Origin: Minisyncoccota bacterium
Lineage (GTDB): Bacteria > Patescibacteriota > Minisyncoccia > Phycocordibacterales > UBA9973
NCBI GenBank assembly: GCA_017991395.1
Contig: JAGOQQ010000003.1
Coordinates: 2,400-66,399 of the forward strand
DNA length: 64,000 bases
Direction: 5' to 3'
Shown here: piece by piece, positions 30,378 to 64,000 of the stretch
Numbering within the stretch: the first letter of the stretch is position 1
Layout of the letters: each line of letters begins with the position of its first letter
Translations under genes and position numbers: made by a program
The notes under the pieces: model-generated
Seen by the model: the letters and a program-made list of their open reading frames with translations, nothing else
The model's database searches: none
What the model was told of the DNA's origin: nothing

Positions 30378-30541
30378 ATAGTTTTTTATAGTACCACACT
30401 TTTGCTTTTTTTGACCTTTTTTGGTATTATAGTTGACGTATTCCCCTAGTGCTTAGCGAGCCATAAAGCTTTATAACCACGAAAGAATACATACAAAAAA
30501 AGAATATTCCCCTGTAGCTCAGCGGTAGAGCAATCGACTGT

Positions 30542-31111
30542 GGACATTTTCCGCCTGTTGTTATACTTAAGGTATGACCGACAAAAGGAAATATGCCGAT
30601 AGACGCGAGGCATTAATCAAAGCTGTTGTGAAAAGACGCAAGAAAGTAAAAGATCTTGCAATAGAATACAAAGGAGGCTCTTGCCAAATTTGTCACTACT
30701 CAAAATGTGTGGACGCTCTTGAGTTCCATCATATCAATCCTTTGGAAAAAGAATTCGGTATCGGAGCAAAAGGCTATACACGTTCTTGGGAAAGTGTTCG
30801 CAACGAATTAGATAAATGTGTTCTCTTGTGTGCAAATTGCCACAGAGAAGTTGAGTCTGGCATAACGCAGCTTTCTATCGAAAGATAGATTGAAAATGAG
30901 GTGAATTCGGGGAAACCCAAATGACGAAAAACAAGTCATGGGCAATCCCGAGCCAAGCCTTGATGAAAATCAAGGAAGGTGTAGAGACTATCCCGTAAGG
31001 GAGTAGGCTTCCGACTTTTGTTGGAACCCGAAGCGCCTCGGTCCTAAATTTTGTGGAAACAAAACACGGATATGATATAGTCCATCCCTTTAAGTAATTT
31101 TAGGATAAATG
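30542..31111 (+). mobile_element. group I intron in tRNA-Asn anticodon loop (between nt 35 and 36) carrying an HNH homing-endonuclease ORF
   Basis: Conserved group I elements: P-like gaattcggggaaa, Q-like aatcccgagc, R-like agagactat, S-like gatatagtcc. HNH ORF 30574..30888. Confidence 0.75.
30574..30888 (+). CDS. HNH endonuclease (intron-encoded)
   Basis: CQICHYSKCVDALEFHHINP...CANCHREVE: HNH nuclease motif with zinc-finger cysteines, 104 aa. Confidence 0.8.
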   Translation: MTDKRKYADRREALIKAVVKRRKKVKDLAIEYKGGSCQICHYSKCVDALEFHHINPLEKEFGIGAKGYTRSWESVRNELDKCVLLCANCHREVESGITQLSIER

Positions 31112-31198
31112 TAATCGATTGGTCGTAGGTTCGATCCCTACCGGGGGAGCATTGAATAAAAAGTTTGCCGTCCTTAAAGGGGCGGTTTTACTTTTTTA

Positions 31199-48196: not shown

Positions 48197-51100
48197 ATGC
48201 ACTATATGTCGAAACAGTTTGTGCATCTTCATACCCATTCTCACTATTCGCTTCTGGATGGTCTTTCAAAAATCCCTGAATTGGTAAAAAAAGCCAAATC
48301 ATATGGTATGCCTGCGCTCGCACTCACGGATCACGGGAGTATGTATGCGGCGATAGAATTTTATAAAGAATGCAAAAAGGCAGAAATCAAACCAATCATC
48401 GGAGTAGAAGCGTACATCGCAAATCGCTCACGCTTTGACAAGGATCCTGGTGTCGACAACAAACGTTTTCACCTCACACTTCTCGCTCGAAACACGCAAG
48501 GATACAAGAATCTCATGACACTTGTCACCAAGGCAAACCTCGAGGGCTATTACTACAAACCTCGAATGGACAAGGACCTTTTGAAAGAATACGGTGATGG
48601 GCTTATATGCCTCACTGGATGTCCCGGAAGTGAGTTTGTACACTATCTCAAAAGCGACGATTTAGACAGCGCACGTGGTCTTGTACAGTTTTATATTGAT
48701 ACATTTGGACGAGAGTCTGTGTTTGTAGAAATCATGAAGCACGATGAAGTGGAGTGGTATGTTCCGCTTCAAAAAAAGATTCAAGCGATGGCGGAGGAAT
48801 TCAATCTTCCGTTGGTTGGAACATGGGATTCGCACTATCTTCACAAAGATGACAATGAAGCACACGACACACTTGTGGCAATCAACACTGGTACAGAAGT
48901 TGGCTCATCAAAAATGTCGATGAAAGCCGGAAATTATTCTTTTATTAATCCCGAAGAAGCTCATGAAGTATTCAAAGATTTTCCCGGTGCAGCCGAAAAC
49001 ACTGTCAAAGTTGCCGAGCTTGTTGATATAGAAATTGATCTTGGAAATCTGTATTTTCCGACATTTGAAATTGCAGACAATCGTTCACCTGATGACGTCC
49101 TAAAAGAAATGACGTATCAAGGTATCGAACGACTGGGAATAGAAAAAACTGAAGAAGTGGTAACACGCGCCAATTACGAACTCGATGTTATCAAAATGAA
49201 AGGCTACCCGTCGTACTTTTTGGTGGTGGCTGACTTGATGCGTTTTGCACGAGAAGCGGGAATTCTCACTAACACTCGAGGTAGTGCCGCGGGTTCATTT
49301 GTGTCATATGTGTGCGGAATCACAAACGTGAATCCAATCGAATACAATCTTCCCTTCGAGCGATTTCTCAATCCCTACCGACCATCTGCTCCCGATATCG
49401 ATATGGACATCGCCGACAATCGCCGTGATGATCTCATTGAATATGCGCGAAAAAAATATGGCGAAGATCGGGTGGCACAAATTGGAACATTTGGAACAAT
49501 GGCAGCTCGTGGTGCAGTCAAAGACGTAGCACGTGCACTTGGCTATCCATATGCAATTGGTGATAGAATTTCAAAACTCATTCCGATGGGCTCGCAAGGA
49601 TTTCCAATGACGATAGAACATGCACTTGAAATAACACCGGAGCTCAAAGGTTTTTACGACAACGAAAAGGATACAAAGAAAATTATTGACCTCGCAAAGA
49701 AACTCGAAGGTGGTGCACGACACATTTCTGTACACGCAGCGGGTGTAGTGATTTCTCCACGTCCTATCACCGAATTCACTCCAGTACAGCTCGACCCGAA
49801 GGGCGGAAAAATCATTACTCAATACGACATGTATTCAATCGAAGATGCGGGTCTTCCAAAATTCGACTTTCTCGGAATTCGAAACCTTTCGTTTCTCGCT
49901 GAATCTATCAATATCGTTCGCACGCTGTACAACATTGAAGTAGATCTAGTAAAAGTCCCACTTGATGATAAAAAAACATTTGAAATGCTCGCACGCGGAG
50001 AGACCGAGGGACTTTTCCAGCTCAACGGAGGTGGGATGACTCAAAAACTCGTCAAACTCAAACCTACAAGTATTCACGATATCAACGTAATGGTGGCATT
50101 GTATCGACCTGGGCCGATGCAGACGATTGATGAATATATCGATCGAAAACATGGCAAAAAACCGATTGTGTACTATCACCCAAAAATGAAAAGCTATCTC
50201 GGCGCTTCACTTGGACTGATGGTGTATCAAGACGACCTTCTTTTTACTGCTATCGAACTTGCCGGATATGACTGGGGTGAAGTAGACAAATTTCGAAAAG
50301 CGGTTGGTAAAAAAATTCCAGAAGAAATGGCGAAACAGCATATTCGCTTCGTTGAGGGGTGTCAGTCTCATTCAAAAATGACAAAAAAAGAATCAGAATT
50401 CATTTGGACACTTTTCGAACCATTTCAAGGATACGGATTCAACAAAGCTCACGCCGCGAGTTATGGAAAACTTGCGTATCATACGGCCTACATGAAGGCA
50501 AACTTCCCTGTGGCATACATGACCGCCATGCTCACCGCAGAATCTGGTGACGTTGAAACTATTGGAATCTACGTCAACGAATGTCGACGTATGGGAATTG
50601 AAGTTCTTCCACCCGATGTAAATGAAAGTCTCGGAGGTTTTGCGATTGCACCAGAGGAAGGCAAATCTATCATCGACAGTCGGACAATTCGTTTTGGACT
50701 CTACACTATTAAAAATCTCGGTGGTGACATTTCCGACGCCATCATAGAGGAGCGGAAGAAAAATGGTCATTACAAAGATCTTTCAGATTTTCTCACACGA
50801 GTTCAACACAAAAATCTCAATAAAAAATCTATCGAAGCACTCATTAAAACTGGTGCGATGGATCTCTTTGGTGAACGAGGAGAACTTCTCGCAAACTTTG
50901 AAGACATGCTGACTTTTAGCAAAGAAATTGGACGACTTGCATCTGCGTCACAAGCATCACTCTTTGGTGATATGAGCGAGCAAATTTTGCCCACATTTAC
51001 CCTGACCCACACCGCACCAGCAACAAAACCTGAAAAACTCGCATGGGAAAAAGAACTTTTGGGTCTTTATATTTCCGGACACCCACTCGACAGAATCCGA

Positions 51101-51403
51101 GAAAAACTCGAAACAAAACCTGTAAATATAAAAGTAATCAGAGAAGAACTTGGCAATGGTCGTCCTGTGACAATTGGAGGAATGGTAGAAGAATCACGTG
51201 TTGTCATCACCAAAAACAATGACCGCATGGCATTTATCAAATTTACGGATTTTACTGGGACAATAGAAGCAGTAGTATTTCCAAAGCTCTACAAAGATAA
51301 TGCGCTCCTTTTTGAGACCGAAAAATGTCTTGCGATGGTAGCAAAAGTATCTATTCGTGATGGTGAAAAATCGCTTATTGTAGAAAACGCAAAAGAGATA
51401 TAG
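48197..51403 (+). CDS. dnaE: DNA polymerase III alpha subunit
   Basis: PHP domain HLHTHSHYSLLDG, polymerase core; 1068 aa. Confidence 0.9.
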   Translation: MHYMSKQFVHLHTHSHYSLLDGLSKIPELVKKAKSYGMPALALTDHGSMYAAIEFYKECKKAEIKPIIGVEAYIANRSRFDKDPGVDNKRFHLTLLARNTQGYKNLMTLVTKANLEGYYYKPRMDKDLLKEYGDGLICLTGCPGSEFVHYLKSDDLDSARGLVQFYIDTFGRESVFVEIMKHDEVEWYVPLQKKIQAMAEEFNLPLVGTWDSHYLHKDDNEAHDTLVAINTGTEVGSSKMSMKAGNYSFINPEEAHEVFKDFPGAAENTVKVAELVDIEIDLGNLYFPTFEIADNRSPDDVLKEMTYQGIERLGIEKTEEVVTRANYELDVIKMKGYPSYFLVVADLMRFAREAGILTNTRGSAAGSFVSYVCGITNVNPIEYNLPFERFLNPYRPSAPDIDMDIADNRRDDLIEYARKKYGEDRVAQIGTFGTMAARGAVKDVARALGYPYAIGDRISKLIPMGSQGFPMTIEHALEITPELKGFYDNEKDTKKIIDLAKKLEGGARHISVHAAGVVISPRPITEFTPVQLDPKGGKIITQYDMYSIEDAGLPKFDFLGIRNLSFLAESINIVRTLYNIEVDLVKVPLDDKKTFEMLARGETEGLFQLNGGGMTQKLVKLKPTSIHDINVMVALYRPGPMQTIDEYIDRKHGKKPIVYYHPKMKSYLGASLGLMVYQDDLLFTAIELAGYDWGEVDKFRKAVGKKIPEEMAKQHIRFVEGCQSHSKMTKKESEFIWTLFEPFQGYGFNKAHAASYGKLAYHTAYMKANFPVAYMTAMLTAESGDVETIGIYVNECRRMGIEVLPPDVNESLGGFAIAPEEGKSIIDSRTIRFGLYTIKNLGGDISDAIIEERKKNGHYKDLSDFLTRVQHKNLNKKSIEALIKTGAMDLFGERGELLANFEDMLTFSKEIGRLASASQASLFGDMSEQILPTFTLTHTAPATKPEKLAWEKELLGLYISGHPLDRIREKLETKPVNIKVIREELGNGRPVTIGGMVEESRVVITKNNDRMAFIKFTDFTGTIEAVVFPKLYKDNALLFETEKCLAMVAKVSIRDGEKSLIVENAKEI

Positions 51404-51448
51404 TTGACATATATTTTGGTAGTGGTAGAATTTAAAAAAACCATACAA

Positions 51449-51901
51449 ATGAATACACCATCAAATGAATTTGGGTCCAGAAATGTTGACCCCCTTCTCT
51501 ACGAGAGAGCTCAAGAAATACTTAATGATTACAACCTAAGAAAGTTGTCGAAATTATGTCCAATTTCAAAAAATCATTTTTTTGATGCGCTTGAACATTA
51601 TTACAATGCTCATAAACTTAAAAATGCGTACAAGAATAGATTCAAAAGATTCTGCAGCGAAATTATACCTATTTGTAAAATCATTCAACCTCCCGCTTCG
51701 CATACCAAACAAACAGTCGAAAAAACCGAACAGGATTCGCCTACTCAAGAGACACCAAAAGAATTGAGAAAGGAACTAAAGGAATGCGCAAAGGAGTTCA
51801 TCAGAAACAACTGCTCCCCGGGAATCGAGTACCTACGAGAGTACATGGAAGGAATCATTTCGGATGATGAGATTGACCGAATAGGAAATCTCGCATCATA
51901 G
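51449..51901 (+). CDS. hypothetical protein
   Basis: The ORF opens at 51404; the MNTPSNEF Met is chosen. Confidence 0.35.
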   Translation: MNTPSNEFGSRNVDPLLYERAQEILNDYNLRKLSKLCPISKNHFFDALEHYYNAHKLKNAYKNRFKRFCSEIIPICKIIQPPASHTKQTVEKTEQDSPTQETPKELRKELKECAKEFIRNNCSPGIEYLREYMEGIISDDEIDRIGNLAS

Positions 51902-51915
51902 TGCATTAATTATGC

Positions 51916-51949
51916 AAAAAGCGCACACCAGATTGGTGTGCGCTTTTTT
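51916..51949. terminator. bidirectional terminator aaaaagcgcacacc-agat-tggtgtgcgcttttt
   Basis: Perfect 14-bp stem. Confidence 0.75.
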
Positions 51950-51960
51950 ACTTTTTAAGA

Positions 51961-52566
51961 TTAAGATGTCGCTACATCAATAGAAGTATTTTCGATATCT
52001 TCCATGATTTTCATCACTTGATCTGCATACTTTTCTACAATACTAGGAGGGTTGTAGGTTTGAAGGATAGCCTTCACATCCTTACCTTCATAGTAATGAT
52101 CAGTATTTGGGTGGTTACCCGCAAGGTGCGTAGTAACCTTCACAATCGCAGTATCAACAGATTCGAAACCAAATTTACATGATCCCCATCCAAACGGATT
52201 GTTTGGTGCTTTTGGGTTTTTACACATAAACTTACCTCCTGTTGTTTCTCGCATTGCGATCGCTGCTACAAGACGCCAATCAAGGTCATTCTCATCAGCT
52301 GCTTCAACGAATGTCTTACCGTGTCCTGCGAGCGGAAGCCCACGTGACGCGAAGTACTCGTCAATTCGCTCTGCGCGTGTATCTACGACAGCTTCTGTTA
52401 TATCAGCCATCGCAATACTATTATTGATTTGAAGTGACGTTACGAATGAATTTGCAAATCCTGTTGGTGCAGTCTGTTTGACTGGTCCTGGAGTCGCAAA
52501 CATTGTTGTTACTAATGGAATAAAGAGTAATGAGTGAACGTATCGTACTAGTGTGTTTTTTTTCAT
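51961..52566 (-). CDS. secreted glucosaminidase-domain (FlgJ/LytD-like) peptidoglycan hydrolase
   Basis: Signal peptide, then WRLVAAIAMRETTGGK...NNPFGWG motif. Confidence 0.5.
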   Translation of the reverse strand: MKKNTLVRYVHSLLFIPLVTTMFATPGPVKQTAPTGFANSFVTSLQINNSIAMADITEAVVDTRAERIDEYFASRGLPLAGHGKTFVEAADENDLDWRLVAAIAMRETTGGKFMCKNPKAPNNPFGWGSCKFGFESVDTAIVKVTTHLAGNHPNTDHYYEGKDVKAILQTYNPPSIVEKYADQVMKIMEDIENTSIDVATS

Positions 52567-52795: not shown

Positions 52796-54583
52796 CTACT
52801 TTTCATTCAGTGCATCAAGTCCCTCCTTCATCGACTGCATTCTTGATGCAATAATACGTTCAGCATCTTCGATATCCTTTGTATGTTGAGAAATAAGCCT
52901 TTTTTCACCGTCATTTGTTGAGCTGAGCAAACTTGCCCTCTTCAACGCCTGAGCGTCTTCTGATAAAATATCAAAACTACGCGCCAAAAGATGCTCTGTG
53001 TCTCTTAACTCATGAGATATCTTGTACTTCATCAGTCTCATTCTGTACCATATAAATGCAAGAAAGAAGGCAAGAATAATAATGACTATTATAATCGGAC
53101 CAATGAGTCCTCCACCCAGCATTCCAGCAAATAGCCCGGTTGATTTAACAACTACTATAACTGGCTCGGAATCCTCACTTGTTGCCCCTTCTTTATTCAC
53201 GGCTTTGACGCTAATCACATACGTATCTGCTCCAAATCTCTCTGCCAGCACAACGGTAAATGTGCCGTCTGCCCTAGCTTCAGTGGTCGTCTCAAATACA
53301 ACACCATCCTTGTTTTTTGAATTATAAAAAATCTTACTTCCCTTTTGGTTATTGTTTTGAGCTGAAAGTGACAACACCACATCAAAGTTTGGCAATGTCG
53401 TTCCTTTTATTATGATTGGTTCTCCTTCGTCTACAACACCTGTGTACTCGATAATCTTTGGCACAGGCAATCCTGTAATGGTAAATGTTTTCTTTTCTTT
53501 TATACTATTTCCTGCGCGATCTTTTGCGGTCACGGTGATAGTATGTTCTCCTGGTGGCAACGCTGGAGTCTCATAGATATTTGATGAATTCTCAAACCAT
53601 GTTGTTCCATATGAAGTTCCAATCTCAATTTCGTATTCCTTTATTCCTGAACTCAAATCTTCTGACTCAAACATGAAGCGTGCACGAGGGCTTGTTTTTG
53701 CACTCTTGTCCATTTCTGTAACGACGAGCTTTGAAGGTGGTGTTGTGTCTATTTGAAACCGGAAATGCGCTATTGACCCCCATCCTTTTTCGTTTCTGGT
53801 TCTCACATGTAAATACCAAGAACCATCCTCAAGTACATCGGTTGTGTACATAGACATCATACCTTTTGATGATGTGCCTGGATTTGTAGTTGGTTTTTTA
53901 TCTACCACATATGTCACTCCGGTAGTATCTGGGGCAAGATTCCATGCGAAAGATGCCTTATTTATTGGATACCATTCAAAACCACTTTTGTGTGTTGATG
54001 ATATGACTTGCGGCGCTTGTGGCAACCCTTTCCCTGCTTCCTCAGTAGTAAACTCAGATCCTACAGGTCCAAGCACATATGTGCCATCTCGAACAGACGC
54101 GAGTATGTTTGTACCCTTTCCGTCATTAGCAAGAACTGATGCTGAAAGAAAATTCACCGGAGCGGTACCTTGTGCTTTTACTTTAAATGTAATTGTAAAT
54201 ATTGTTCCTCGTGACCCCTTGTATCCTGGATTAAGCACAATACCTTCAAATCTCATCACGCCAGGTTCAGACGAGTATTCACCCGGGTCAATAGTCCAAA
54301 AATTGACTATTGAAGATGCCTTGGAAACCGAAGTGACAGAGAGCTTATCAGAAGGATAATTTATTCTTCCTGAAAGTGCATTGAGGGCTTGCTCGGTACT
54401 TGTAGTATAAATAGACACTGAAAAACTATCACCAACATTGTAATTTCCTGAATTTGGTGACACAAGCAAACTTGCCGCAAAAGAGTAGTGCGGAGCGACA
54501 AAAAAACAAAACACCGCAAACACGCACGCTAAAATCGCCTGAAAAAAAAGCAGTATATTACTCTTTTTTCCTTGTATATACAT
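52796..54583 (-). CDS. cell-surface protein: N-terminal cohesin-like domain, Ig-like repeats, C-terminal TM anchor and cytoplasmic coiled-coil tail
   Basis: LLVSPNSGNYNVGDSFSVSIYTT...INYPSDKLSVTSV...GTIFTITFKVKAQGTAPVNF, a cohesin-type beta-sandwich signature. TM segment GPIIIVIIILAFFLAFIWY near the C-terminus. The ORF opens at 54625; the likely start is the MYIQGKK Met at 54583. Confidence 0.55.
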   Translation of the reverse strand: MYIQGKKSNILLFFQAILACVFAVFCFFVAPHYSFAASLLVSPNSGNYNVGDSFSVSIYTTSTEQALNALSGRINYPSDKLSVTSVSKASSIVNFWTIDPGEYSSEPGVMRFEGIVLNPGYKGSRGTIFTITFKVKAQGTAPVNFLSASVLANDGKGTNILASVRDGTYVLGPVGSEFTTEEAGKGLPQAPQVISSTHKSGFEWYPINKASFAWNLAPDTTGVTYVVDKKPTTNPGTSSKGMMSMYTTDVLEDGSWYLHVRTRNEKGWGSIAHFRFQIDTTPPSKLVVTEMDKSAKTSPRARFMFESEDLSSGIKEYEIEIGTSYGTTWFENSSNIYETPALPPGEHTITVTAKDRAGNSIKEKKTFTITGLPVPKIIEYTGVVDEGEPIIIKGTTLPNFDVVLSLSAQNNNQKGSKIFYNSKNKDGVVFETTTEARADGTFTVVLAERFGADTYVISVKAVNKEGATSEDSEPVIVVVKSTGLFAGMLGGGLIGPIIIVIIILAFFLAFIWYRMRLMKYKISHELRDTEHLLARSFDILSEDAQALKRASLLSSTNDGEKRLISQHTKDIEDAERIIASRMQSMKEGLDALNEK

Positions 54584-55445
54584 AGGCAAAAATACTAACT
54601 CCAATAAGCAATGCACACAGCCCAATCAATACACCCAAGCCCAGCATGCTCACAAGATTATTTCCAAACTTTATTTTTGCCTCTCTCTCGTTTCCGTTTT
54701 TATCGACAGCAATTACCCTGATTGTTGATTTTAATGATTGATCTTGAAGTAAGTATGGGCTTTTTGCACTAATCCAACTACTTGAACCTTCTTTTATTCT
54801 ATATGAGGCAATACCTGTTTCTTTGTCTTTGGCGTCAAATACTACAAAATATTTTCCGTCGAAAAATCTATTATCTCTTTTTACTAAAAGAGTAAACGGT
54901 TCTGGAGGATTTGTGTCGAATGAAAAATCATCCACAGAAAATCCTTCATTTGAGATCATAAATTCATATGGCAATGTCTTGGTTACACCGCGAGTTCCCA
55001 AACCATCATTTAGAAATGTGTCAGCCGATGTAAAAGTGAGTGACCCCTTTCCTTCACTTTTTGCGACAAATACGAGCCTTGTGACACGTCCAGAAGAAAC
55101 AGAATTGGTGACTGGGTCAATAAGACCACTAAAACCCCCTGCAGCAATACCTGCAAAGCGAATTGAATTTCCGTTAAGTGCGGGTGTCTCAACCCATCCG
55201 TTTATTATTGATCCGGTATCAAAATAATCTACAAATTCAAGAAATTCACTTGGAAATATTATTTCTGCCTCGACAGCATTTGTGTTTTTTCCCTCTGTGT
55301 CGAGAAAAATATCAAAATAAATTTTATCCCCAGTTTTGAAATGTTGAGTTGGTGATGAAAAATATATCTCAGATGCCAAAGTTGCTCGAGGAGTTACGGC
55401 GAGTAAAAGAAAGGCAAATGTGATTATATAGAAAAATTTTTTCAT
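54558..55445 (-). CDS. cell-surface protein with N-terminal cohesin-like domain and C-terminal TM anchor
   Basis: SEIYFSSPTQHFKTGDKIYFDIFLDTEG...AVEAEIIFPSEFLEFVDYF...GRVTRLVFVAKSEGKGSLTF, then TM LGLGVLIGLCALLIGVSIFAYVY. The ORF runs to 55460, overlapping the upstream stop; start taken at the MKKFF Met at 55445. Confidence 0.5.
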   Translation of the reverse strand: MKKFFYIITFAFLLLAVTPRATLASEIYFSSPTQHFKTGDKIYFDIFLDTEGKNTNAVEAEIIFPSEFLEFVDYFDTGSIINGWVETPALNGNSIRFAGIAAGGFSGLIDPVTNSVSSGRVTRLVFVAKSEGKGSLTFTSADTFLNDGLGTRGVTKTLPYEFMISNEGFSVDDFSFDTNPPEPFTLLVKRDNRFFDGKYFVVFDAKDKETGIASYRIKEGSSSWISAKSPYLLQDQSLKSTIRVIAVDKNGNEREAKIKFGNNLVSMLGLGVLIGLCALLIGVSIFAYVYTRKKE

Positions 55446-55447
55446 AA

Positions 55448-56338
55448 TTATCCAGTCCAATAATACGCCATAATACTAAAGTCAACAATTGACACGATTC
55501 CGTCTTTACTCAAATCAACGTATGACGGGGGTGCCACTTTTTTGTACCAAAATGCAAGAATACTGAAGTCAACAATGTTGACATATCCATCTTGATTTAA
55601 ATCAGCGTCAATAAACGTATTATTATTTTGATTTTTGATAATCGTCTCATTTCCAACTTTAAAATATGTAAGCTTACCGTACTGACTTACTTCATTTGTA
55701 TACACTGCTTTTGATTTTGCTGAGTGATCGCCGTATTCTAAAATTGATGTATCCAAATTAAATAAATATGCTCCACCAGAATCGGATGGCACTTGAAAAA
55801 AATGTGGCACCAATGAGTTTACATTTATTGTAACATTACTGTTTGGAGCAGTTTGTCCGAAAATGGAAAGTGTATCACCTTGCTTGACCTGAATTTTGTC
55901 GGTATCAATAGTAGGAGCAAGAAAAATGCCAGAAATGGTAGCAAAAACTCCCTGTGATATCATGATCGGAAAAGTAAACAATGTAGAACGCCTTCCTAGT
56001 GAATCCTCAGACCATACCGAAAATGTGTAAGTGGATGGAGAAAGCCCACTTACAACAATTTCAAAATGCGCATCTGGACCTGCAATAGTAGAGACTATCT
56101 GCTGACCGTCTTTGAGCACCACCACCGTAGAGAGAGGATATGCTCTTCCAATAAATTTTACACCCGTAAAAATACCTCCGGTACCCCCCGAACCTCCACT
56201 CCCTTGACCAGGATCAGTAGTACTAACAACTTGTGCTGTGATAGTTATGTTTTCTGTTCCCTGCGACTGCGCATAGGAAACTGAATATGTTGAAACAATA
56301 GTTAAAATCAGTAAAAATGATAGTAGAAATTGCTTCAT
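55448..56338 (-). CDS. secreted protein with C-terminal type-I dockerin module
   Basis: Signal peptide; C-terminal duplicated Ca-binding segments DLNQDGYVNIVDFSIL and DLSKDGIVSIVDFSIM. Confidence 0.7.
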   Translation of the reverse strand: MKQFLLSFLLILTIVSTYSVSYAQSQGTENITITAQVVSTTDPGQGSGGSGGTGGIFTGVKFIGRAYPLSTVVVLKDGQQIVSTIAGPDAHFEIVVSGLSPSTYTFSVWSEDSLGRRSTLFTFPIMISQGVFATISGIFLAPTIDTDKIQVKQGDTLSIFGQTAPNSNVTINVNSLVPHFFQVPSDSGGAYLFNLDTSILEYGDHSAKSKAVYTNEVSQYGKLTYFKVGNETIIKNQNNNTFIDADLNQDGYVNIVDFSILAFWYKKVAPPSYVDLSKDGIVSIVDFSIMAYYWTG

Positions 56339-56351
56339 GATTTATATACTA

Positions 56352-57365
56352 CTACGAGCGATTTTGTGTTGGTGGCATCATTCCCTTTCGAGCTTGTTCA
56401 ATAACCCACTTATTGTAATGAGTGATTGCGGTCTTTATAATAAACAGTGCAAAAATCAATGCAATTAGAAGAGTTAGTAGAAGCTGCCAAGGAAGTACTA
56501 AGAATGAGTACATTGCAGTTGCTGCTTGATTACTTTTTCCGTATGAAAGGTCGAGGTATGCCGTATACTTTCCAAATGCAAAATTTTTCCACTGACGAGA
56601 TATTGTCTCAGTAAAAGATTCATTAGTTATTTTTTCTGCATCTGCAAGAGTAAGACTTCCGTCAGCACCTGATTGCCATACCACTTCAAATTTTCGAGTA
56701 CTCTTTGGAAGTACATTTCCTTCTACTTGGTTGGCAGGAAGGTTTTTTGTTGTCATTCCAAATGTGTTTTTAATCACAAGCAAACCTTCTGGCTTTATAC
56801 GGTCATTTCCACCGTTTTGAAATCTGTATGTAAACCCCACAGGAAGTGCGTCAAATTTCTTCTGTCCGTCCTTTGTAGAAAAATCCATTACTTTTCCTTC
56901 TTCAGTAATTTCACCAGAAACAGTGAGAAGTACGAGTGTACCAATCTTTGCTCCAATAGAAACTTGTCCTGGCTCGTTTGGATTGCTTGACCAAAAAACT
57001 GCAGCAAAATGTCCTCCAGCCTCTGCACCGCTTGGAACATTGATAGTAAATGGTACCACTTTAGATTCACGAGGATTGAGCGTGATTGATGGCTCAGTTG
57101 AAATCCATGTACCAAGTCCTTCTGCTGCTGGAACAAACGTCGGCGTTCCGTTTTCTCCGCGAGCTTCAAAATTATCGAATGATGAATAAAGGGTTTTTAT
57201 TTCATCTTGCTCATTCATCACAATCATTTCACCTGAGACAATTTGTCCAGGGTCAGATGAGATTTCAAAACGTACAGGAGTGATAGTCACCGCATATGCA
57301 TAGTTTCCTCCAAGAAATGCACCGAGCACCATCAGCGCTATAAGTGAAAGTTTTTTATAATTCAT
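56352..57365 (-). CDS. DUF916/DUF3324-like (CscA-like) cell-surface protein with C-terminal TM anchor
   Basis: Signal peptide, VTITPVRFEISSDPGQ...TLNPRESKVVPFTINVPSGAEAGGHFAAVFW, C-terminal TM LLTLLIALIFALFII. This is the architecture of CscA proteins of Gram-positive WxL loci. Confidence 0.45.
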   Translation of the reverse strand: MNYKKLSLIALMVLGAFLGGNYAYAVTITPVRFEISSDPGQIVSGEMIVMNEQDEIKTLYSSFDNFEARGENGTPTFVPAAEGLGTWISTEPSITLNPRESKVVPFTINVPSGAEAGGHFAAVFWSSNPNEPGQVSIGAKIGTLVLLTVSGEITEEGKVMDFSTKDGQKKFDALPVGFTYRFQNGGNDRIKPEGLLVIKNTFGMTTKNLPANQVEGNVLPKSTRKFEVVWQSGADGSLTLADAEKITNESFTETISRQWKNFAFGKYTAYLDLSYGKSNQAATAMYSFLVLPWQLLLTLLIALIFALFIIKTAITHYNKWVIEQARKGMMPPTQNRS

Positions 57366-57383
57366 AGTGATTAGAAAAAATTA

Positions 57384-58451
57384 TTAAAAACTTCCAGTAG
57401 CTACGTAAGTAAGTGTTGCACTATATGATCCCGCTTCAGTGTTTGAAGCGATGTTTGCTATGTATCGAGCTGAATATGTAGTAGTTGCTGATGGTATTGT
57501 TGAAGCAGCTATTTCATCTGGAAATGCTGCAGAATCAAATGCAAATCCAGCTGCGGCATATGGAGCAGTAACTGCACCTGAACCTCCTGATGCAGTGAAG
57601 CGAACTCCGAATTGTTCAGAACCTACTGATGTAGCGGTGTTTGAAGCACCGATTGCGGTGATTGTTTTTGCACCGTCTGTGAGAGTGTTTCCTGTGAGAG
57701 TGATTATGTATCCGCCGGCTGCGTTTGTTCCTGCAGCAAGAGTGTGTGCTTCTACTTCTGTGGCATTACCTGCTGCGTTGTCGGCAAAAGTGTCATCAGA
57801 AGCAGAAAGGTTTCCGAATTCTATAGTGTTGTCTGAGATTGCAAAAGTGAGAGTTGGTTGTACTGTTGCAGTGACGACGACTTGGTCGTCTGTGATGATG
57901 TCTACAGCTGATGTTCCTGTGTCTCCAAATGATCCTCCGACAACAACAGTATCATCATCATCCACGTCTGTTGGGTTGGTGATTTGGTTTGCACCAGTTC
58001 CACTACTTACTGCGTTTGTACCAACACGGAAACGCACACATCGATCTGCGGTGACAGTACCTGTACCAGAAGTGAGTGTGATCACTTGTCCAGACTTTGC
58101 AATACCCCATGTTGCACCTGAAGGAGTTGTGTTGGTTGCAGCCTCGTTGAATGTTGCTGAAGTACAGTTGTTGGTTGTACCGATTGCAAAGTCAACATCA
58201 TCTTCGGTAATAGGTGTAAGTGACCATTCTCCAGAGTATGTAAGAGTTATTATTCCACCTGCTCCTACTCCTGTAGGAGTTACGAACTTGATTTCCTGGT
58301 TTGAAAGCTCAGAAACCTTGAGTCGGCTAAGCACGACAGAATAGCTTGTGATTGTCGCAGCCATTGCATTCAATGGAAAAAATCCAACACACAAAGAAAG
58401 TATCGTTGCAAAAAATGCCATTCCGCCCATTGTTTTTTTAAAAAAATTCAT
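57384..58451 (-). CDS. secreted Thr/Ala/Gly-rich surface protein with C-terminal WxL-like (YxL) domain
   Basis: Signal peptide MNFFKKTMGGMAFFATILSLCVG...NAMA. C-terminal ~160 aa (PTLTFAISDNTIEFGNLS...GGYIITLTGNTLTDGAKTITA...GSYSATLTYVATGSF) is shared with two neighbours. Confidence 0.5.
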   Translation of the reverse strand: MNFFKKTMGGMAFFATILSLCVGFFPLNAMAATITSYSVVLSRLKVSELSNQEIKFVTPTGVGAGGIITLTYSGEWSLTPITEDDVDFAIGTTNNCTSATFNEAATNTTPSGATWGIAKSGQVITLTSGTGTVTADRCVRFRVGTNAVSSGTGANQITNPTDVDDDDTVVVGGSFGDTGTSAVDIITDDQVVVTATVQPTLTFAISDNTIEFGNLSASDDTFADNAAGNATEVEAHTLAAGTNAAGGYIITLTGNTLTDGAKTITAIGASNTATSVGSEQFGVRFTASGGSGAVTAPYAAAGFAFDSAAFPDEIAASTIPSATTTYSARYIANIASNTEAGSYSATLTYVATGSF

Positions 58452-58579
58452 AATTAATAGTACTAAGTAAATAATAATCAATAAAAAACATTCTCCCAAT
58501 TTGATATATATATATTATATAGTGTTATTTAAAAACACCTAGTATAGTTTTCCACATACACAAAAGATTTTAAATCTAA

Positions 58580-59644
58580 CTAAAAACGTCCAGTTCCTAC
58601 ATATGTGAGTGTGGTGGTGTATGATCCCGCTTCAGTGTTGGCTGCAATGTTTGCAATATACCTCGCTGAGTATGTGGTGGTTGCAGTAGGTGCTGTGGAT
58701 GCTGCAATTTCATCAGGAAATGCAGCTGTATCAAATGCAAATCCAGAAGCCGCATATGGAGCCGTAACTGCGCCTGAACCTCCTGATGCAGTGAACCGTA
58801 CTCCGAATTGTTCAGAACCTACTGATGTGGCAGTGTTTGAAGCACCAATTGCAGTGATTGTTTTTGCACCGTCTGTAAGCGTGGCACCATTCATGGTGAT
58901 TACGTATCCACTCGCTGCGTTTGTCGACGCTGAAAGTGTATGTGCTTCAACTTCTGTTGCGTTTCCTCCTGAATCATCAGCAAAGGTATCGTCACCGGCA
59001 GAAAGGTTTCCGAATTCTATGGTGTTGTCTGAAATTGCGAAAGTAAATGACGGCTGAACAATCGCAGTGACGACAACTTGGTCGTTTGTGATGATGTCTA
59101 CGTATGCAGTACCTGAGTCGCCCCCAGCTATAGAGACAGTCAAGGTATCGTCATCATCTTCAGACCCATTAGTAATTTGACTATCACCTGTAAAGCCATA
59201 TGAAGCATTTGTTCCAAAATAAAATCTTACACACCTATCACTATCCACCGCACCAGTGTCTGAATGAATTAAAATTGATTGTCCTGCAACCTCAACCCCC
59301 CAAGTAGCGCCCGACGAGGCTGAATCTAATTCCTCCTCTGTAAATGTTGCAGTGGTGCAATCATTTGAATCTCCTATTGCAAAATCAACATCTTTCCAAT
59401 CAAAAGCGCCCATACCCGTAAAATCTGCACTCCATGTAAAAGTAGTCGTACTTCCTGCGGAAATTCCTGATGGCACCACAAAATAAACTGTTTGATTTGC
59501 GGCAACATTTGCTCTTAATCTTGAGAGGTATACTTGAAAATTTGTAACAGAAGCTGCAAAAACCACTTGAGGAAAGAGTATTGGGGTACAAAAAAATACC
59601 AACACAAAAAATGGAATTACATTTTTTTTCATTAAAACATTCAT
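58580..59644 (-). CDS. secreted surface protein, paralogue with the same C-terminal WxL-like domain (~90% identical over that domain)
   Basis: Start chosen at the MNVLMKK Met at 59644; the 5' part of the listed ORF overlaps the upstream gene. Signal ...QVVFAAS. Confidence 0.5.
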   Translation of the reverse strand: MNVLMKKNVIPFFVLVFFCTPILFPQVVFAASVTNFQVYLSRLRANVAANQTVYFVVPSGISAGSTTTFTWSADFTGMGAFDWKDVDFAIGDSNDCTTATFTEEELDSASSGATWGVEVAGQSILIHSDTGAVDSDRCVRFYFGTNASYGFTGDSQITNGSEDDDDTLTVSIAGGDSGTAYVDIITNDQVVVTAIVQPSFTFAISDNTIEFGNLSAGDDTFADDSGGNATEVEAHTLSASTNAASGYVITMNGATLTDGAKTITAIGASNTATSVGSEQFGVRFTASGGSGAVTAPYAASGFAFDTAAFPDEIAASTAPTATTTYSARYIANIAANTEAGSYTTTLTYVGTGRF

Positions 59645-59678
59645 GGTTAAATTTAGTATATCATTTTTATATGCACAT

Positions 59679-62600
59679 TTAAAAATTTCCAGTTGCAATA
59701 TATGTAATTGTCGAAGAATATTGTCCCGCTTCTGTGATTGCTGAAATATTTCCGAGATATCGAACAGAATATGTTGTGAGTGTATTGTCCCCAGTAGCTG
59801 CGGATGCGACTTCATCTGGAACCGAAACACCATCGTATGCATAGTTTGACGCGTGATTGTATGGAGAAGATGCTGCACCTGATCCACCTGAAGCGGTAAC
59901 TCTAATACCAAATTGTTCTGTATTTGTCGAAGATGCGGCACTTGTGCCACCAATAGCATCGATTGATTTTGCGCCATCGGCAAGAGAAGCTCCAGAAACC
60001 GTCACAAGATATCCGGATGGCGCATTTGTGGTGACATCAAATGTATGCGCAACAGTCTCTGACCCCGATCCAAGTGTGTCTCCGGTGGCATATCGTGCGG
60101 CTCCAGATGAGAGATTTCCAAATCCGATTGTATTATCAGAAATTGCAAATGTGAGTGATGGTGTAAATGAACTAAATGTCCAATTCGTATTTCCTGTCGA
60201 ATCATAGTTTGAGGTATCAGATGCATCAATTGTCACTCCTCCGCTTGCATCAGAATCTTTGGCATCAACATTAAACACAATTGCATCTCCACCGACCACA
60301 TTAAAATACCAAGGATTTCCAGATGTAGACGATCGTAATGCCACTCGAGTTCCTGTGGCTTGACCATTAAAATCAATTCCATTGCCGATTTGGTATGTTT
60401 CTCCTTCTTGGAATCGTATTTTTACATTTGCAGTCGTTACCACAAAAGTCTTTTCTACATTAAATCCATCTAAAAATATTACCGAAGGACTCGTATCGGG
60501 ATTGCTACCTGAGTTATTTACTATTTGAAGATCTTGAAATGGATAATCAATCATCCCACCCGCAGGACCAGACAATATCTGCTGACTTGCGCCATCTAGA
60601 GTTAATGTACTCCCATTATGATAAAACACTGCATTGTTTGTATAATCTCCACCGAGAGTCCATTCAATAGTATTTGGTGCATCAAATTGTGCGCCTGAAT
60701 TAATTGTCAAATCTCCGTTTATATCCAAAGCTGAAGCATTTGAAGTGAACACTGAACCGGAATTTAATGTGAATCCTCCTGTAGTAAATGAAAAATTGGA
60801 ACCACTAGTATCAAGATTTGTTGTTGCCGAACCGGTCGGAGTAAGGACTGTATTTCCAGAAACCACAAGCTCATCTGCAAACACAAAATCAAGCTGACAT
60901 GCACACCCACTAGGAGTCACTGAAAAATTTGTATTAATAGTCGATATTGCCCCTGACTGAATTGTGTATATTCTCCCCACAGAAGCAAAAGATGGCGAGA
61001 GTGTTAAATTTCCATAAGTATCTCCGTCTATTGTAACGGCCGCATCACCATTGTATACATACGTAGCACTTCCCGCATTATGAGTTCCACCATCAGTAAA
61101 TGGCAAAGATACCGCTCCAGTGAGTGTGACAGTAGATGCATTTGCTTCCCATGTGGTTGATGCATCAATTGTAATTGAACGCATCGTCACGGCGTAGTTT
61201 GACACATTTGTATTAAATACCACAGTCGCGGTTCCGGTAGGATTTACATCAATATCACTATTTGAACCACCAGTAAACACGCCACCTGTATTAAGTGTTA
61301 ATTCATATGGTGTGATACTTGCTGATGGCACAACAGAAACATCCCCTGTAAAAGTAATTGTACTTCCAGATGTAAATTGATACGCTCGATCGGCGGTAAT
61401 AGCAGGATTCACTGTGACATTGTTGAATGTAATAGCCCCTGAAGTCATCGGATTTACATCTGCATTTGCATTGAACACTACAGTCGAAGTTCCTGCAGTA
61501 AATGTTCCACTAGAAAGGGTGAATGGTGTTGATGATCCTGTAAGTGTAATTGTCGATCCATTTGCAGTTAAAATTCCTCCTGAAAGAATTTCGATTCTTC
61601 CTGCTTCGAGTGCATAGTTTGTACCTGTGGTATTCCACTCACAATCTGCAGAAGTATTTTTCTTAATTGTGAGAAGGTCAGTGACGTCAATAGTATTTGC
61701 CATATCCACTTGAAGCTCATAAACACCACCAGAGCCAGACGGGTTGCAAAGTAGATCGTCCAACACAGTCACAGCACTTGTCGAAATTGTATAGGTACGT
61801 GATGCAGTAAGTGTGGGTGAAAGTTCCAAATCATAAAACTCTGTTATTCCCGACGAAAGTGTGAGTGTTCCTACACCATTGAAAATCACAGTACTTGTTC
61901 CCTCATCAAAAGTACCTGCACTTCGTGTAAGTGGTGACGAAGATGTACCAGTCAAGGTAATTGTCGAAGTCTCTGCGGTGAAAGTTGCTCGTGCGTCGGA
62001 TAGTGTTAAGGATGCCGCGGTGACTGAGTACCCATTAGTTTGCAACTCAGCATATGCAGTACTCGACGGAATTATCTGTATTCTGTCTGTCGCAGATATT
62101 CCACCAGCACCAAGATCTACGGTCAGTGCATTATTGTTTATAAATGATGAAGTTGGGCTAATTATAAAATCATCATTAACTGTTATTGCGCCTGCACCGA
62201 AAGTATAGGTTTTTCCAGTTGAAAGTTCTGGTGAAAGAGTGATGTTGTTGAAAGTAATTGCACCTGAGGTGAGAGTAGTACTTCCATCACCGTTAAAAAT
62301 CACAGTACTTGTCGAAGGAGTAAATGTTCCGCTGTTTGTAAACATCACACCACTTGTACCATATATTGTGATAGTGTATGTTCCGCCAGCATTCAGTGTA
62401 TGCGAACTGGCAATCGAAATTGTTTTTGCGTTCATTCCTGACGCAAGAAGTAATTGAGGTGTTGATGTTCCACCTGTAAGACTAATATCTCCAAGACTAT
62501 CGAGTGATCCGTTGTTTGTAAATGTTGCGGTACCTACCGATGAAAACGTAATTGGATTTGCCGAAGACGCAATCCATACCGCACTCGTGTGTATTGTCAT

Positions 62601-64000
62601 ATCACCTTTGAGTACAAGTGCAGGATCGTAAGTATCGTGCTGAAGTGTGAGGGTTCCTCCATTCCCCACAACAAAATCTTCATTCACTGTGATTGTTTGT
62701 GATGTTGTCGTACCGAGTGTGTATGTTTGAGTACCAGATGCGGGATACACTTGCAATGTGGCGTATGTGGTCGCTTGAACTTCAGTCGCAGAAGTTCCAG
62801 TAAATCGTGTGATATTTCTATCTGGTGTATAGGTTCCTTCTACGACAAAAGGTCGAGATGTTCCTGTGCCACTATTTGAAAGTGTCAAAGTCTCCGTCAC
62901 ACCAGTGTACGTTCCTGCCGATCCAATTTTTAACACAGTCGAATTCACATCACCTCCAGGAGTATATTCATCTACAACAAGCACACCACCGGTAGTATAT
63001 GTAGGTACGTTTGTTGAACATGTAAAAAGATTGTCACCAGAAGCTGGGTATGTTGAAAATCCACACACTTCGACGTTTGTCGTCGCATCAGTGTGAGTAT
63101 GATAAATAGCCGCTCGGTCTACGTACAAATGCAGAGTTTGATTTGCAGCATTTACTTCTGAAATCGAGTTTGCATCATTTGCGTTTCCTTGAATATATAC
63201 TGCGATCTGATCTCCGGCCGAAATTCCAACGTTTGAAAATGAGTACGCCCCGCCTGATGCCGTGGTTGTGACCGGCGAGCCATTGTTGATTGAGAGTGCG
63301 ATAGTGTATCCAGTGGTGTCTAATGTGGATTCACTTCCCGATTGGTAAATATTTCCCGATACTGTGTACTCAGGAACAGTATCAACCCATCCCATCGTGA
63401 CAAATGCAAAATCAAGTTCATTGTTTGTACCAGCTGCTCCTGGAGATGAATTTCGCAAGCGAAGCCATACTTTATCACTCACCGTATTTACTATATCTTC
63501 TGGCCAGACATTAAATCCGTTGATTCCCTGACAAGTTCCAGTTGCACTACAACCAGAAAGCCCAAACACAGTTCCGATAGTAATCGGATCACTATACACG
63601 GCAGTAGTAGTGGCACCAGAAGTGGCATTTGAAGTAGAGCCCACAGATGTCACACCAAAATTAGAGCCAGATTTATCAAACATAGACAAAAGCACTGTTC
63701 CATTTACACTTGAACGAAATCTCCCCCCCACGAATACAGATGTTAGATAGACATTGTCTGGTTTAGTAAGCGGGAAATTGAGCCACTGTGCACCACCATA
63801 TTCTTGGTTGATATCATTGTCACTATCATACGCATAAAACGCTGTTCCAAATGTATTCGATTCTTGCACTGCTGTATTAATCCACTGCGCTGCTGTCGTA
63901 GTTGTGTCAATAGTTCGAGTATCCGTACAATCTCCCGATGAAAGTGTTCCAAATGATATGAAGCAATCTGTTCCCGCAGAATCATTGTTTGTGCTTCCCA
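59679..64000 (-). CDS. giant (>1,440 aa) Thr/Gly/Ser/Asn-rich surface protein, C-terminal WxL-like domain; N-terminus lies beyond the window end
   Basis: The minus-strand frame is open from 59679 through position 64000 with no in-frame ATG/GTG/TTG upstream of the listed GTG at 63869. No signal peptide at the listed start. The repetitive beta-strand-like composition suggests a beta-helix/adhesin-like fold. Confidence 0.55.
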   Translation of the reverse strand, partial: GSTNNDSAGTDCFISFGTLSSGDCTDTRTIDTTTTAAQWINTAVQESNTFGTAFYAYDSDNDINQEYGGAQWLNFPLTKPDNVYLTSVFVGGRFRSSVNGTVLLSMFDKSGSNFGVTSVGSTSNATSGATTTAVYSDPITIGTVFGLSGCSATGTCQGINGFNVWPEDIVNTVSDKVWLRLRNSSPGAAGTNNELDFAFVTMGWVDTVPEYTVSGNIYQSGSESTLDTTGYTIALSINNGSPVTTTASGGAYSFSNVGISAGDQIAVYIQGNANDANSISEVNAANQTLHLYVDRAAIYHTHTDATTNVEVCGFSTYPASGDNLFTCSTNVPTYTTGGVLVVDEYTPGGDVNSTVLKIGSAGTYTGVTETLTLSNSGTGTSRPFVVEGTYTPDRNITRFTGTSATEVQATTYATLQVYPASGTQTYTLGTTTSQTITVNEDFVVGNGGTLTLQHDTYDPALVLKGDMTIHTSAVWIASSANPITFSSVGTATFTNNGSLDSLGDISLTGGTSTPQLLLASGMNAKTISIASSHTLNAGGTYTITIYGTSGVMFTNSGTFTPSTSTVIFNGDGSTTLTSGAITFNNITLSPELSTGKTYTFGAGAITVNDDFIISPTSSFINNNALTVDLGAGGISATDRIQIIPSSTAYAELQTNGYSVTAASLTLSDARATFTAETSTITLTGTSSSPLTRSAGTFDEGTSTVIFNGVGTLTLSSGITEFYDLELSPTLTASRTYTISTSAVTVLDDLLCNPSGSGGVYELQVDMANTIDVTDLLTIKKNTSADCEWNTTGTNYALEAGRIEILSGGILTANGSTITLTGSSTPFTLSSGTFTAGTSTVVFNANADVNPMTSGAITFNNVTVNPAITADRAYQFTSGSTITFTGDVSVVPSASITPYELTLNTGGVFTGGSNSDIDVNPTGTATVVFNTNVSNYAVTMRSITIDASTTWEANASTVTLTGAVSLPFTDGGTHNAGSATYVYNGDAAVTIDGDTYGNLTLSPSFASVGRIYTIQSGAISTINTNFSVTPSGCACQLDFVFADELVVSGNTVLTPTGSATTNLDTSGSNFSFTTGGFTLNSGSVFTSNASALDINGDLTINSGAQFDAPNTIEWTLGGDYTNNAVFYHNGSTLTLDGASQQILSGPAGGMIDYPFQDLQIVNNSGSNPDTSPSVIFLDGFNVEKTFVVTTANVKIRFQEGETYQIGNGIDFNGQATGTRVALRSSTSGNPWYFNVVGGDAIVFNVDAKDSDASGGVTIDASDTSNYDSTGNTNWTFSSFTPSLTFAISDNTIGFGNLSSGAARYATGDTLGSGSETVAHTFDVTTNAPSGYLVTVSGASLADGAKSIDAIGGTSAASSTNTEQFGIRVTASGGSGAASSPYNHASNYAYDGVSVPDEVASAATGDNTLTTYSVRYLGNISAITEAGQYSSTITYIATGNF

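Follow-up and report, generated by a model that had tools for sequence, protein, structure and literature searches.

What is built at the cell surface by a block of seven consecutive, co-directional open reading frames (ORFs) at the end of a 64,000-nt stretch from a Minisyncoccota bacterium (contig JAGOQQ010000003.1; the whole stretch is called the window below)? An earlier note on this DNA had read the block as a self-contained surface-assembly operon, in which WxL-like adhesins bound to the wall lie beside a scaffold of membrane cohesins and dockerin-tagged cargo. The answer that we find probable is that the locus is a Pam-type pilus operon, encoding an usher-less donor-strand-exchange filament that would stand on the cytoplasmic membrane of a member of the candidate phyla radiation (CPR) and be held at its base by a cohesin-dockerin pair. 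The seven ORFs occupy positions 52796-64000 of the minus strand, to which all coordinates given below refer unless stated otherwise, and run head to tail, bearing out the gene count of the earlier note. They are named G1 to G7 in 5'-to-3' order, and the start codons chosen here agree with the public gene call. Genes G3 to G7 are closely packed, with gaps of 18 nt (G3/G4) and 13 nt (G4/G5); the stop codon of G5 abuts the start of G6, and 26 nt are common to G6 and G7.

The C-terminal ~170 residues are common to the products of G1, G2 and G3 (identity to G3: 86% for G2 and 50% for G1), as had been noticed before for the giant protein and its two paralogues (there as a domain of ~160 residues). 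Pfam gave nothing for this shared domain. Among the Pam models of 2026 held by NCBIfam (NF058581 for the pilin C-terminal domain and NF058579 for PamT), NF058581 (CPR_Pam_pilin_C, "Pam pilus system pilin subunit"; curated cut-off, 55 bits) recognised all three proteins, with 77.8 bits for G1, 81.2 bits for G2 and 76.1 bits for G3. Pam pili are donor-strand-exchange filaments of Candidatus Mycosynbacter amalyticus, resolved by cryo-electron microscopy (cryo-EM) and made of the pilins PamA and PamB (Troman et al., bioRxiv 10.64898/2026.03.03.709456). In their pilins, an N-terminal sandwich of nine strands is joined by a single linker strand to a C-terminal domain of truncated immunoglobulin (Ig)-like fold; the linker occupies the groove of the neighbouring subunit, and linker and groove are the most conserved parts (10.64898/2026.03.03.709456). 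At the level of sequence, it is strongly supported that the C-terminal domain of G1 to G3 is a Pam-pilin domain, whose predicted fold, a truncated Ig-like one, would receive a donor strand. With this domain as query, an exhaustive profile search retrieved 1454 protein clusters at E<=0.001. In the best 150 of these clusters, all of them close relatives, the domain always lies at the extreme C-terminus of proteins of 183 to 3243 amino acids (aa), which comprise domain-only proteins, pilins of ~350 aa and giants.

The same domain had previously been aligned block by block with the WxL wall-binding domain of Csc loci, an alignment for which we found no statistical support. The Pfam WxL model (PF13731) matched neither G1 to G3 nor any of 72 diverse relatives (0/72) at E values up to 10, and Tyr stands in place of Trp in the WxL motifs of G1 to G3, the defining Trp residues being absent. 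For a direct comparison, a set of real WxL proteins was assembled, for which a WxL pseudo-consensus served solely as a tblastn hook on plasmids. The set was validated by annotations as "WxL domain-containing protein" beside genes for a "DUF916 and DUF3324 domain-containing protein", in Enterococcus, Bacillus, Lactiplantibacillus, Lactococcus, Listeria, Melissococcus and Virgibacillus. When the Pam domain was compared by hhalign with 18 genuine WxL domains, the probability was 3-5% (P 0.008-0.013), with the same outcome for Pam-domain alignments of 15 and of 152 sequences, and only the last ~43 columns were aligned (AGxYxxTLTY vs YxxTLTWTL). Null comparisons with reversed and unrelated profiles gave P 0.007-0.9; the match between WxL and Pam domains lies within this range and is therefore not above noise, so that the domain is not placed in the WxL family by its sequence. 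Neither a WxL nor a Pam structure was among the PDB matches of the fold search, and nothing useful came from searching PDB sequences with the G3 and G4 proteins or with profiles for G4 and for the C-terminal domain. One of the 72 Pam-domain proteins showed a weak Pfam match to Enas, the family of Bacillus endospore appendages (E 0.0021), which is probably due to chance.

Outside their C-terminal domain, G2 (58580-59644; likely N-terminus MNVLMKKNV) and G3 (57384-58451; 355 aa; likely N-terminus MNFFKK) have the architecture of pilins. The G2 product consists of a signal peptide, an N-terminal beta-sandwich, the donor strand NDQVVVTAIV and the C-terminal domain. The AlphaFold2 model of G3 (predicted local distance difference test, pLDDT, 90.6) contains two beta domains, with strands at residues 35-183 and 201-353, separated by an unpaired linker (residues 186-200) that has no secondary structure and lower confidence in the monomer model. 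Within this linker, the putative donor strand Q190-V197 (QVVVTATV; 57861-57884) is almost invariant, the segment DDQVVVTATV being nearly unchanged across 50 homologues. For G2 and G3, the two-domain pilin layout of sandwich, linker strand and C-terminal domain is strongly supported. More than 1037 homologues of G3 were found, of which the best 120 listed are 48-100% identical to it, most of them over almost the full length; this highly conserved pilin is a candidate for the major shaft subunit.

The linker VVVTATV conforms to a donor-strand pattern, [VILF]x[VILF][ST]Ax[VIL], whose occurrence was followed through 81 loci. Directly upstream of the C-terminal domain, the strict pattern was found in at least 65 of the smaller ORFs bearing this domain, and further ones show close variants, such as DDTVAVSGTV. 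In contrast, the pattern is absent from every large protein with the domain (more than 480 and up to 2390 aa); in G1 the corresponding segment reads ...NTNWTFSSFTPS, followed directly by LTFAISD of the domain itself. The large proteins are therefore able to accept a strand and not to donate one. By analogy with FimH, PapG and PamT, such acceptor-only proteins follow the logic of tip subunits, and the presence of a conserved donor strand in the pilins together with its absence from the large proteins fits polymerisation. A third class of proteins with the Pam C-terminal domain (~335-390 aa) was noticed in related loci (for example L014 7717-8826, L034 533-1540 and L050 5847-7007). Its members are devoid of the donor-strand motif and have a conserved "...AYTTKICG..." segment before the domain; they may be adaptors or alternative tip subunits, and the window has no such gene.

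The frame of G1 (59679 to beyond 64000) is open up to the last base of the window, as the earlier note had reported for its giant repetitive protein. An identical public Logan contig (L001; 0 mismatches over 11,281 nt) supplied the complete gene (L001 1664-8773), whose product has 2369 aa; the window holds its 3' part, the N-terminus lying beyond. Two N-terminal modules of ~550 residues (aa 35-577 and 585-1136), 40-50% identical over most of their length, are followed by a region of ~137-aa repeats (aa ~1450-2066; 60591-62441) and by the Pam-pilin domain, which would act as acceptor (59679-60206). Self-BLAST, with 200-aa windows for the repeats, delimited both the second module, whose end lies at 63383-63998, and the repeat region; the first module falls outside the window. 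The repeat copies are 25-48% identical to one another and appear at the protein level only, Tandem Repeats Finder having found nothing in the DNA of the giant gene; they may form a beta-helix-like stalk. With its acceptor domain and no donor strand, G1 is proposed as a candidate for the distal tip adhesin. In the first module, residues 269-358 match Pfam GH114_assoc (24.6 bits vs a cut-off of 22; E 3e-5), which may hint at a glycan-related binding module.

The gene that follows the pilins, G4 (56352-57365; likely N-terminus MNYKK), had been described as a DUF916-like anchored protein, and this reading gains weight from profile comparison. Alone, G4 reaches 13 bits on DUF916, and 38 of 47 members of its family match this model weakly (best E 4.2e-5). 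Compared by hhalign with eight annotated WxLIP proteins, the G4 family gave 97.9% probability and E 3.7e-13 over 226 columns, vs 5% for the reversed control. The AlphaFold2 model of G4 (pLDDT 86.4) shows a pair of beta domains and, at the C-terminus, a long helix (residues 293-329), and its matches include the pilus chaperones CfaA (11.7), FimC, SafB, EcpB, CsuC, CupB2, YadV and PapD (9.6). It is thus strongly supported that G4 is a two-domain chaperone of PapD-like fold with a C-terminal transmembrane helix, analogous to PamC and PamD, the PapD/FimC-like chaperones with such a helix in the Pam system (10.64898/2026.03.03.709456). Its sequence likewise gives strong support to homology with WxLIP proteins (DUF916, DUF3324 and a transmembrane helix), so that G4 suits both descriptions. 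A hairpin, QVSIGAKIG (residues 134-142; 56940-56966), lies in a block of low pLDDT and is conserved as GQVSIGAKxG in the family alignment; it is a candidate complementing strand, a feature that would befit a donor-strand chaperone. In AlphaFold2 models, a strand of WxLIP has been placed into the gap of the WxL sandwich (PMC10599100). In the small WxL proteins of Firmicutes (L084-L091), the signal peptide is followed by a short, conserved strand (for example NGIVEF, GTIEF or GKVVF), and this by a Pro-rich linker (PVDPxDP) and the WxL domain. From its sequence this strand looks like an N-terminal donor extension and, with the homology of WxLIP to the chaperone, provides a hint that WxL proteins might polymerise.

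These data bear on whether the locus could after all be a Csc/WxL-type surface cluster, in which non-polymerising, wall-bound adhesins lie beside dockerin-tagged cargo on membrane cohesins. The analogy with these clusters is nevertheless meaningful, as G4 is a genuine WxLIP homologue. Furthermore, the layout resembles that of the WxL/Csc clusters of Lactobacillales and Bacillales, in which small proteins and one large protein with an adhesin-like N-terminal region share an always C-terminal domain and are accompanied by a single anchored partner with two Ig domains (WxLIP there, G4 here), and the last strand of the domain (AGSYSATLTY) recalls YxxTLTWTL. In contrast to those clusters, the domain has no WxL motifs, no Pfam WxL match and no profile similarity outside the null range, the host is a CPR bacterium, cohesin and dockerin genes are present, and, as judged by reading the translations, an LPXTG sorting signal of the CscD kind is missing from the end of all seven products. 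WxL proteins are, moreover, currently described as bound to peptidoglycan and not as filaments, whereas the domain found here passes a curated Pam-pilin model, its homologous pilins form filaments by cryo-EM, and the donor strand is distributed in a way that fits polymerisation. We hold a Csc/WxL-type cluster to be distinctly unlikely. The earlier suggestion of an attachment apparatus in a CPR bacterium can thus be kept, while its wall-bound adhesins beside a cargo scaffold give way to a polymerising pilus, which fits better.

How would such a pilus be held by the cell? The G5 product (55448-56338; likely N-terminus MKQFLL) consists, in this order, of a signal peptide, an ITITAQV strand, a Gly-rich linker, an Ig-like (Big_6) region and a dockerin. 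The strand (I31-V38, ITITAQVV; 56225-56248) appears to mimic the donor strand of the pilins. Of 71 orthologues, 59 show the donor pattern in this N-terminal part, where 0.036 occurrences would be expected per region; orthologues without the strict pattern mostly have near variants, and residues A35 and V37 are invariant. At the C-terminus (55451-55603; DLNQDGYVNIVDFSILAFWY ... DLSKDGIVSIVDFSIMAYYWTG), two Ca2+-loop/helix repeats, DLNQDGYVNIVDFSILAFWY and DLSKDGIVSIVDFSIMAYYW, make up a duplicated F-hand, both loops of which retain D1, N/S3, D5, N/S9 and D12. G5 passes Pfam Dockerin_1 (24.2 vs a cut-off of 22.9), all orthologues searched match this model (33/33; best E 9.3e-10), and the family profile matches solved dockerins (2y3n_B at E 2.2e-6), so that the duplicated dockerin module reported earlier is well founded. 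G5 is the sole dockerin-like ORF in the 64-kb window.

The membrane-anchored cohesin-like proteins of the earlier note, G6 (54558-55445; likely N-terminus MKKFFY) and G7 (52796-54583; 595 aa; likely N-terminus MYIQGKK), are recovered as well, with weaker support than the dockerin. The larger G7 product consists of a cohesin domain (aa 47-155; 54119-54445), Ig-like domains, a hydrophobic segment and a C-terminal tail of ~90 residues, and scored 25.8-25.9 with Pfam Cohesin (cut-off, 24.1) and ~42.5 bits with Big_13. G6, a paralogue of G7 (hhalign E 1.5e-50), has a cohesin-like domain, an Ig-like domain and a hydrophobic C-terminal segment, and its profile matches the solved Ruminococcus cohesins 5aoz and 5m2o (E 2.7e-5). 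Pfam Cohesin matches 15 of 38 G7 and 11 of 46 G6 orthologues. The hydrophobic segment near the C-terminus of both proteins was read by eye as a membrane anchor. From these domain assignments, we infer that the G5 dockerin would bind the cohesins of G6 and G7 in a Ca2+-dependent manner. As in cellulosomal and non-cellulosomal anchoring (for example by anchoring scaffoldins), a duplicated Ca2+-binding F-hand dockerin at the C-terminus is encoded beside cell-bound cohesins. In contrast to these systems, no glycoside hydrolases or carbohydrate-binding modules are present, the cohesins appear to be anchored by a single C-terminal hydrophobic segment instead of SLH domains or sortase attachment, and what they would carry is the base of a pilus.

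Whether these three genes belong with the pilins was addressed in a synteny survey with the G4 profile, using one genome per species. Relatives were found in 187 genomes, and the best 80 loci were examined, all of them from CPR metagenome-assembled genomes (MAGs) assigned to Paceibacterota and to Nomura-, Kaiser-, Magasanik-, Falkow- and Staskawiczbacteria, some of the taxon labels being obviously automatic. In ~65 of the 80 loci, phmmer searches with proteins of the window found the genes on one strand and in a fixed order, namely (often) a large protein with the C-terminal domain, one or more pilins of ~360 aa, G4, G5, G6 and G7; the cohesin and dockerin genes are therefore core members of this operon type, and the synteny check proposed in the earlier note came out in favour of a conserved block in CPR genomes. 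Three loci have no G5 to G7 despite sufficient flanking sequence. In these, the gene after the chaperone encodes a protein in which a signal peptide and the same kind of strand (VNINATV, VNITATV or VMVTAQV) precede a small domain, with a hydrophobic segment at the C-terminus. This layout is that of PamR, the proposed terminator and anchor of the Pam system, in which two FnIII domains lie between an N-terminal strand and a C-terminal transmembrane helix (10.64898/2026.03.03.709456). The fused anchors suggest that this one device is here divided into two parts, G5 and G6/G7, which dockerin and cohesin would join again. On this reading, the three proteins would be a split, non-covalent counterpart, by analogy, of the PamR proposed for Mycosynbacter.

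The same evidence can be read in two other ways. Non-cellulosomal cohesin and dockerin modules are widespread, and G5 to G7 might be an independent surface module of this kind, serving for instance the display of Ig domains, with no physical link to the fibre. We consider this very unlikely, given that the genes adjoin on the same strand in ~65 of 80 species from several CPR classes, that G5 abuts G6 and G6 overlaps G7, and that the only dockerin-like ORF of the window bears a look-alike of the donor strand. Alternatively, G5 to G7 could be an assembly platform in the role of a pore-less usher, whose cohesins gather the dockerin protein into a site where donor-strand exchange is catalysed or ordered. 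The synteny and domain evidence applies equally to this proposal, which would moreover give a sense to the keeping of two cohesin paralogues of unequal length and to the long tail of G7 past its hydrophobic segment, which is assumed to be cytoplasmic and could couple to the cell interior. However, the N-terminal strand of G5 with the flexible Gly linker behind it suggests a terminal subunit and not a catalyst, and the single small strand-plus-transmembrane protein of genomes that have no G5-G7 triad fits an anchor better; we regard a platform as unlikely.

The survey also bears on the origin of the contig, since the earlier note had raised the possibility of contamination by Gram-positive DNA, i.e. 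a Firmicutes contig with an ordinary Csc cluster. The sole point in favour of such an origin is the DUF916-like and WxL-like character that the proteins have. G3 is 100% identical to a protein on a 424-kb contig of a Candidatus Pacebacteria MAG, and the CPR assignment is therefore sound; in addition, 80 of 80 related loci are from CPR genomes, and the window contains a tRNA-Asn gene split by a group I intron, as reported for Patescibacteria (PMC13011429). The worry is thus refuted, and the chance that the contig is a contaminant is negligible.

Taken as a Pam-type pilus operon, the locus suggests the following course of assembly. Subunits would be exported by Sec, and the conserved QVSIGAK hairpin of G4 would cap the groove left open in every C-terminal domain. 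The fibre would start with the 2369-aa G1 as distal tip adhesin, because this protein has the acceptor domain and no donor strand. G2 and G3 would then polymerise as the shaft, the linker strand of each subunit entering the groove of the preceding one, until the N-terminal strand of G5 (ITITAQV, followed by the Gly-rich tether) is donated to the last pilin and growth ends. Finally, the dockerin of G5 would plug into the cohesins of G6 and G7 and so tie the fibre to the membrane.

With the Pam system, this locus shares the pilin domain and its layout, several pilin paralogues per operon, a PapD-like chaperone with a transmembrane helix, a candidate tip subunit without donor strand, a putative terminator with an N-terminal strand, and the lack of an usher or secretin. 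It differs in having one chaperone gene instead of two, a multidomain candidate tip of 2369 aa where the tip subunit PamT is a C-terminal domain alone, without linker (10.64898/2026.03.03.709456), and, in place of PamR, a secreted strand-and-dockerin protein paired with two membrane cohesins. Donor-strand complementation and exchange are likewise the principle of chaperone-usher pili (Pap, Fim, Csu and CFA/I), whose tip adhesins also join a receptor-type N-terminal region to an acceptor-only pilin domain. Unlike in those pili, there is here no outer membrane, the chaperone is tethered to the membrane, the pilins have two domains, and the donor strand is an internal linker and not an N-terminal extension; Pfam and NCBIfam scans of eight proteins revealed no usher-like protein, and the likeness is one of working principle and not of membership.

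Several observations weigh against this interpretation. For this organism a filament is predicted from its genes, and strand insertion by G4 and G5, like the binding of dockerin to cohesin, is a step that we infer. G4 has no match among the NCBIfam Pam chaperone models, the PamT model (NF058579) gave weak scores of 39-42 bits vs 240, and the window contains neither a tip gene consisting of the C-terminal domain only nor a PamR-like gene, with strand, FnIII domains and transmembrane helix in a single protein. The fold search with G3 returned generic Ig-like adhesins only, PamA and PamB not being found in the PDB copy used. Within the window, the support for cohesins is marginal, as G6 has no Pfam match and G7 exceeds the cut-off by 1.7 bits. 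Lastly, Pam pilins have been described mainly from Saccharimonadia and Microgenomatia (10.64898/2026.03.03.709456), and not from lineages of the Paceibacteria/Parcubacteria type, to which the present one belongs.

The limits of the operon are set by neither promoter nor terminator scans, which gave no clear excess over shuffled sequences. That the operon is self-contained, as had been claimed, is not borne out, for the locus runs on beyond the window and another large gene precedes the giant. This gene (L001 1-1554; at least 798 aa) lies directly before G1 and encodes a very acidic protein with low-complexity stretches rich in Glu, Thr and Ser, for which Pfam gave no match. On the other side, the peptidoglycan glucosaminidase gene that the earlier note had placed immediately downstream reduces to a sub-threshold match (Pfam Glucosaminidase, 20.6 vs a cut-off of 30.2 bits). 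This gene (51961-52566) lies downstream of G7 at a distance of 229 nt; of the 80 related loci, only 4 have it after the block. Because of the weak match and the lack of synteny it was excluded from the system, and it is probably a separate unit. Between it and a convergent gene on the plus strand (51404-51901) lies a strong 15-bp GC-rich hairpin (51916-51948), flanked by A and T runs on both sides, with the look of a bidirectional terminator; DnaE is encoded upstream, on the other strand (48197-51403). Elsewhere in the window, on the plus strand, the above-mentioned tRNA-Asn(GTT) gene (30508-31150) is interrupted within the anticodon loop, where a 570-nt group I intron is inserted (Rfam RF00028, 58.3 bits, at 30828-31104), which carries an ORF for an HNH endonuclease (...EFHHINP...CANCH). 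ARAGORN missed this tRNA in the raw sequence and called it after joining of the exons (exon 1, 30508-30541; exon 2, 31112-31150).

How much of this is new? The kind of pilus is already known from the Pam preprint (10.64898/2026.03.03.709456) and the NCBIfam models of 2026, so that the earlier impression of an undescribed combination does not hold for the pilus core. It does hold for the link to cohesin and dockerin. The Pam preprint makes no mention of cohesin, dockerin, WxL or DUF916. Neither there nor in the literature that we retrieved did we find a conserved cohesin-dockerin module with a strand-bearing adaptor, acceptor-only tip proteins of giant size, or a homology between chaperone and WxLIP. 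A wider proposal, namely that Pam-type pili are tethered by a dedicated cohesin-dockerin joint across much of the CPR (lineages of the Paceibacteria type and their neighbours), the first such pair to serve as a pilus anchor, and that the Pam chaperone is a homologue of WxLIP, making WxL/Csc clusters evolutionary cousins of these pili, is put forward tentatively, as we lean somewhat against it at present.

Much of bacterial diversity belongs to the CPR, whose members live on host cells, attached by means that are barely known. If the Pam-type pilus operon proposed here is real, its cohesin-dockerin pair would mean a new job for an interaction known mostly from cellulosomes, and the operon would gain a parts list with roles for tip, shaft, chaperone, terminator and anchor. 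Pam pili would then reach well beyond the lineages for which they have been reported, as judged from the 187 species genomes with the chaperone and the 1454 protein clusters with the C-terminal domain. In enterococci, listeriae and lactobacilli, WxL/Csc clusters have been connected with virulence and with colonisation of the gut. For these clusters the homology between chaperone and WxLIP would provide a mechanistic lead, in that they too may assemble through chaperone-mediated strand complementation, beyond binding to the wall.

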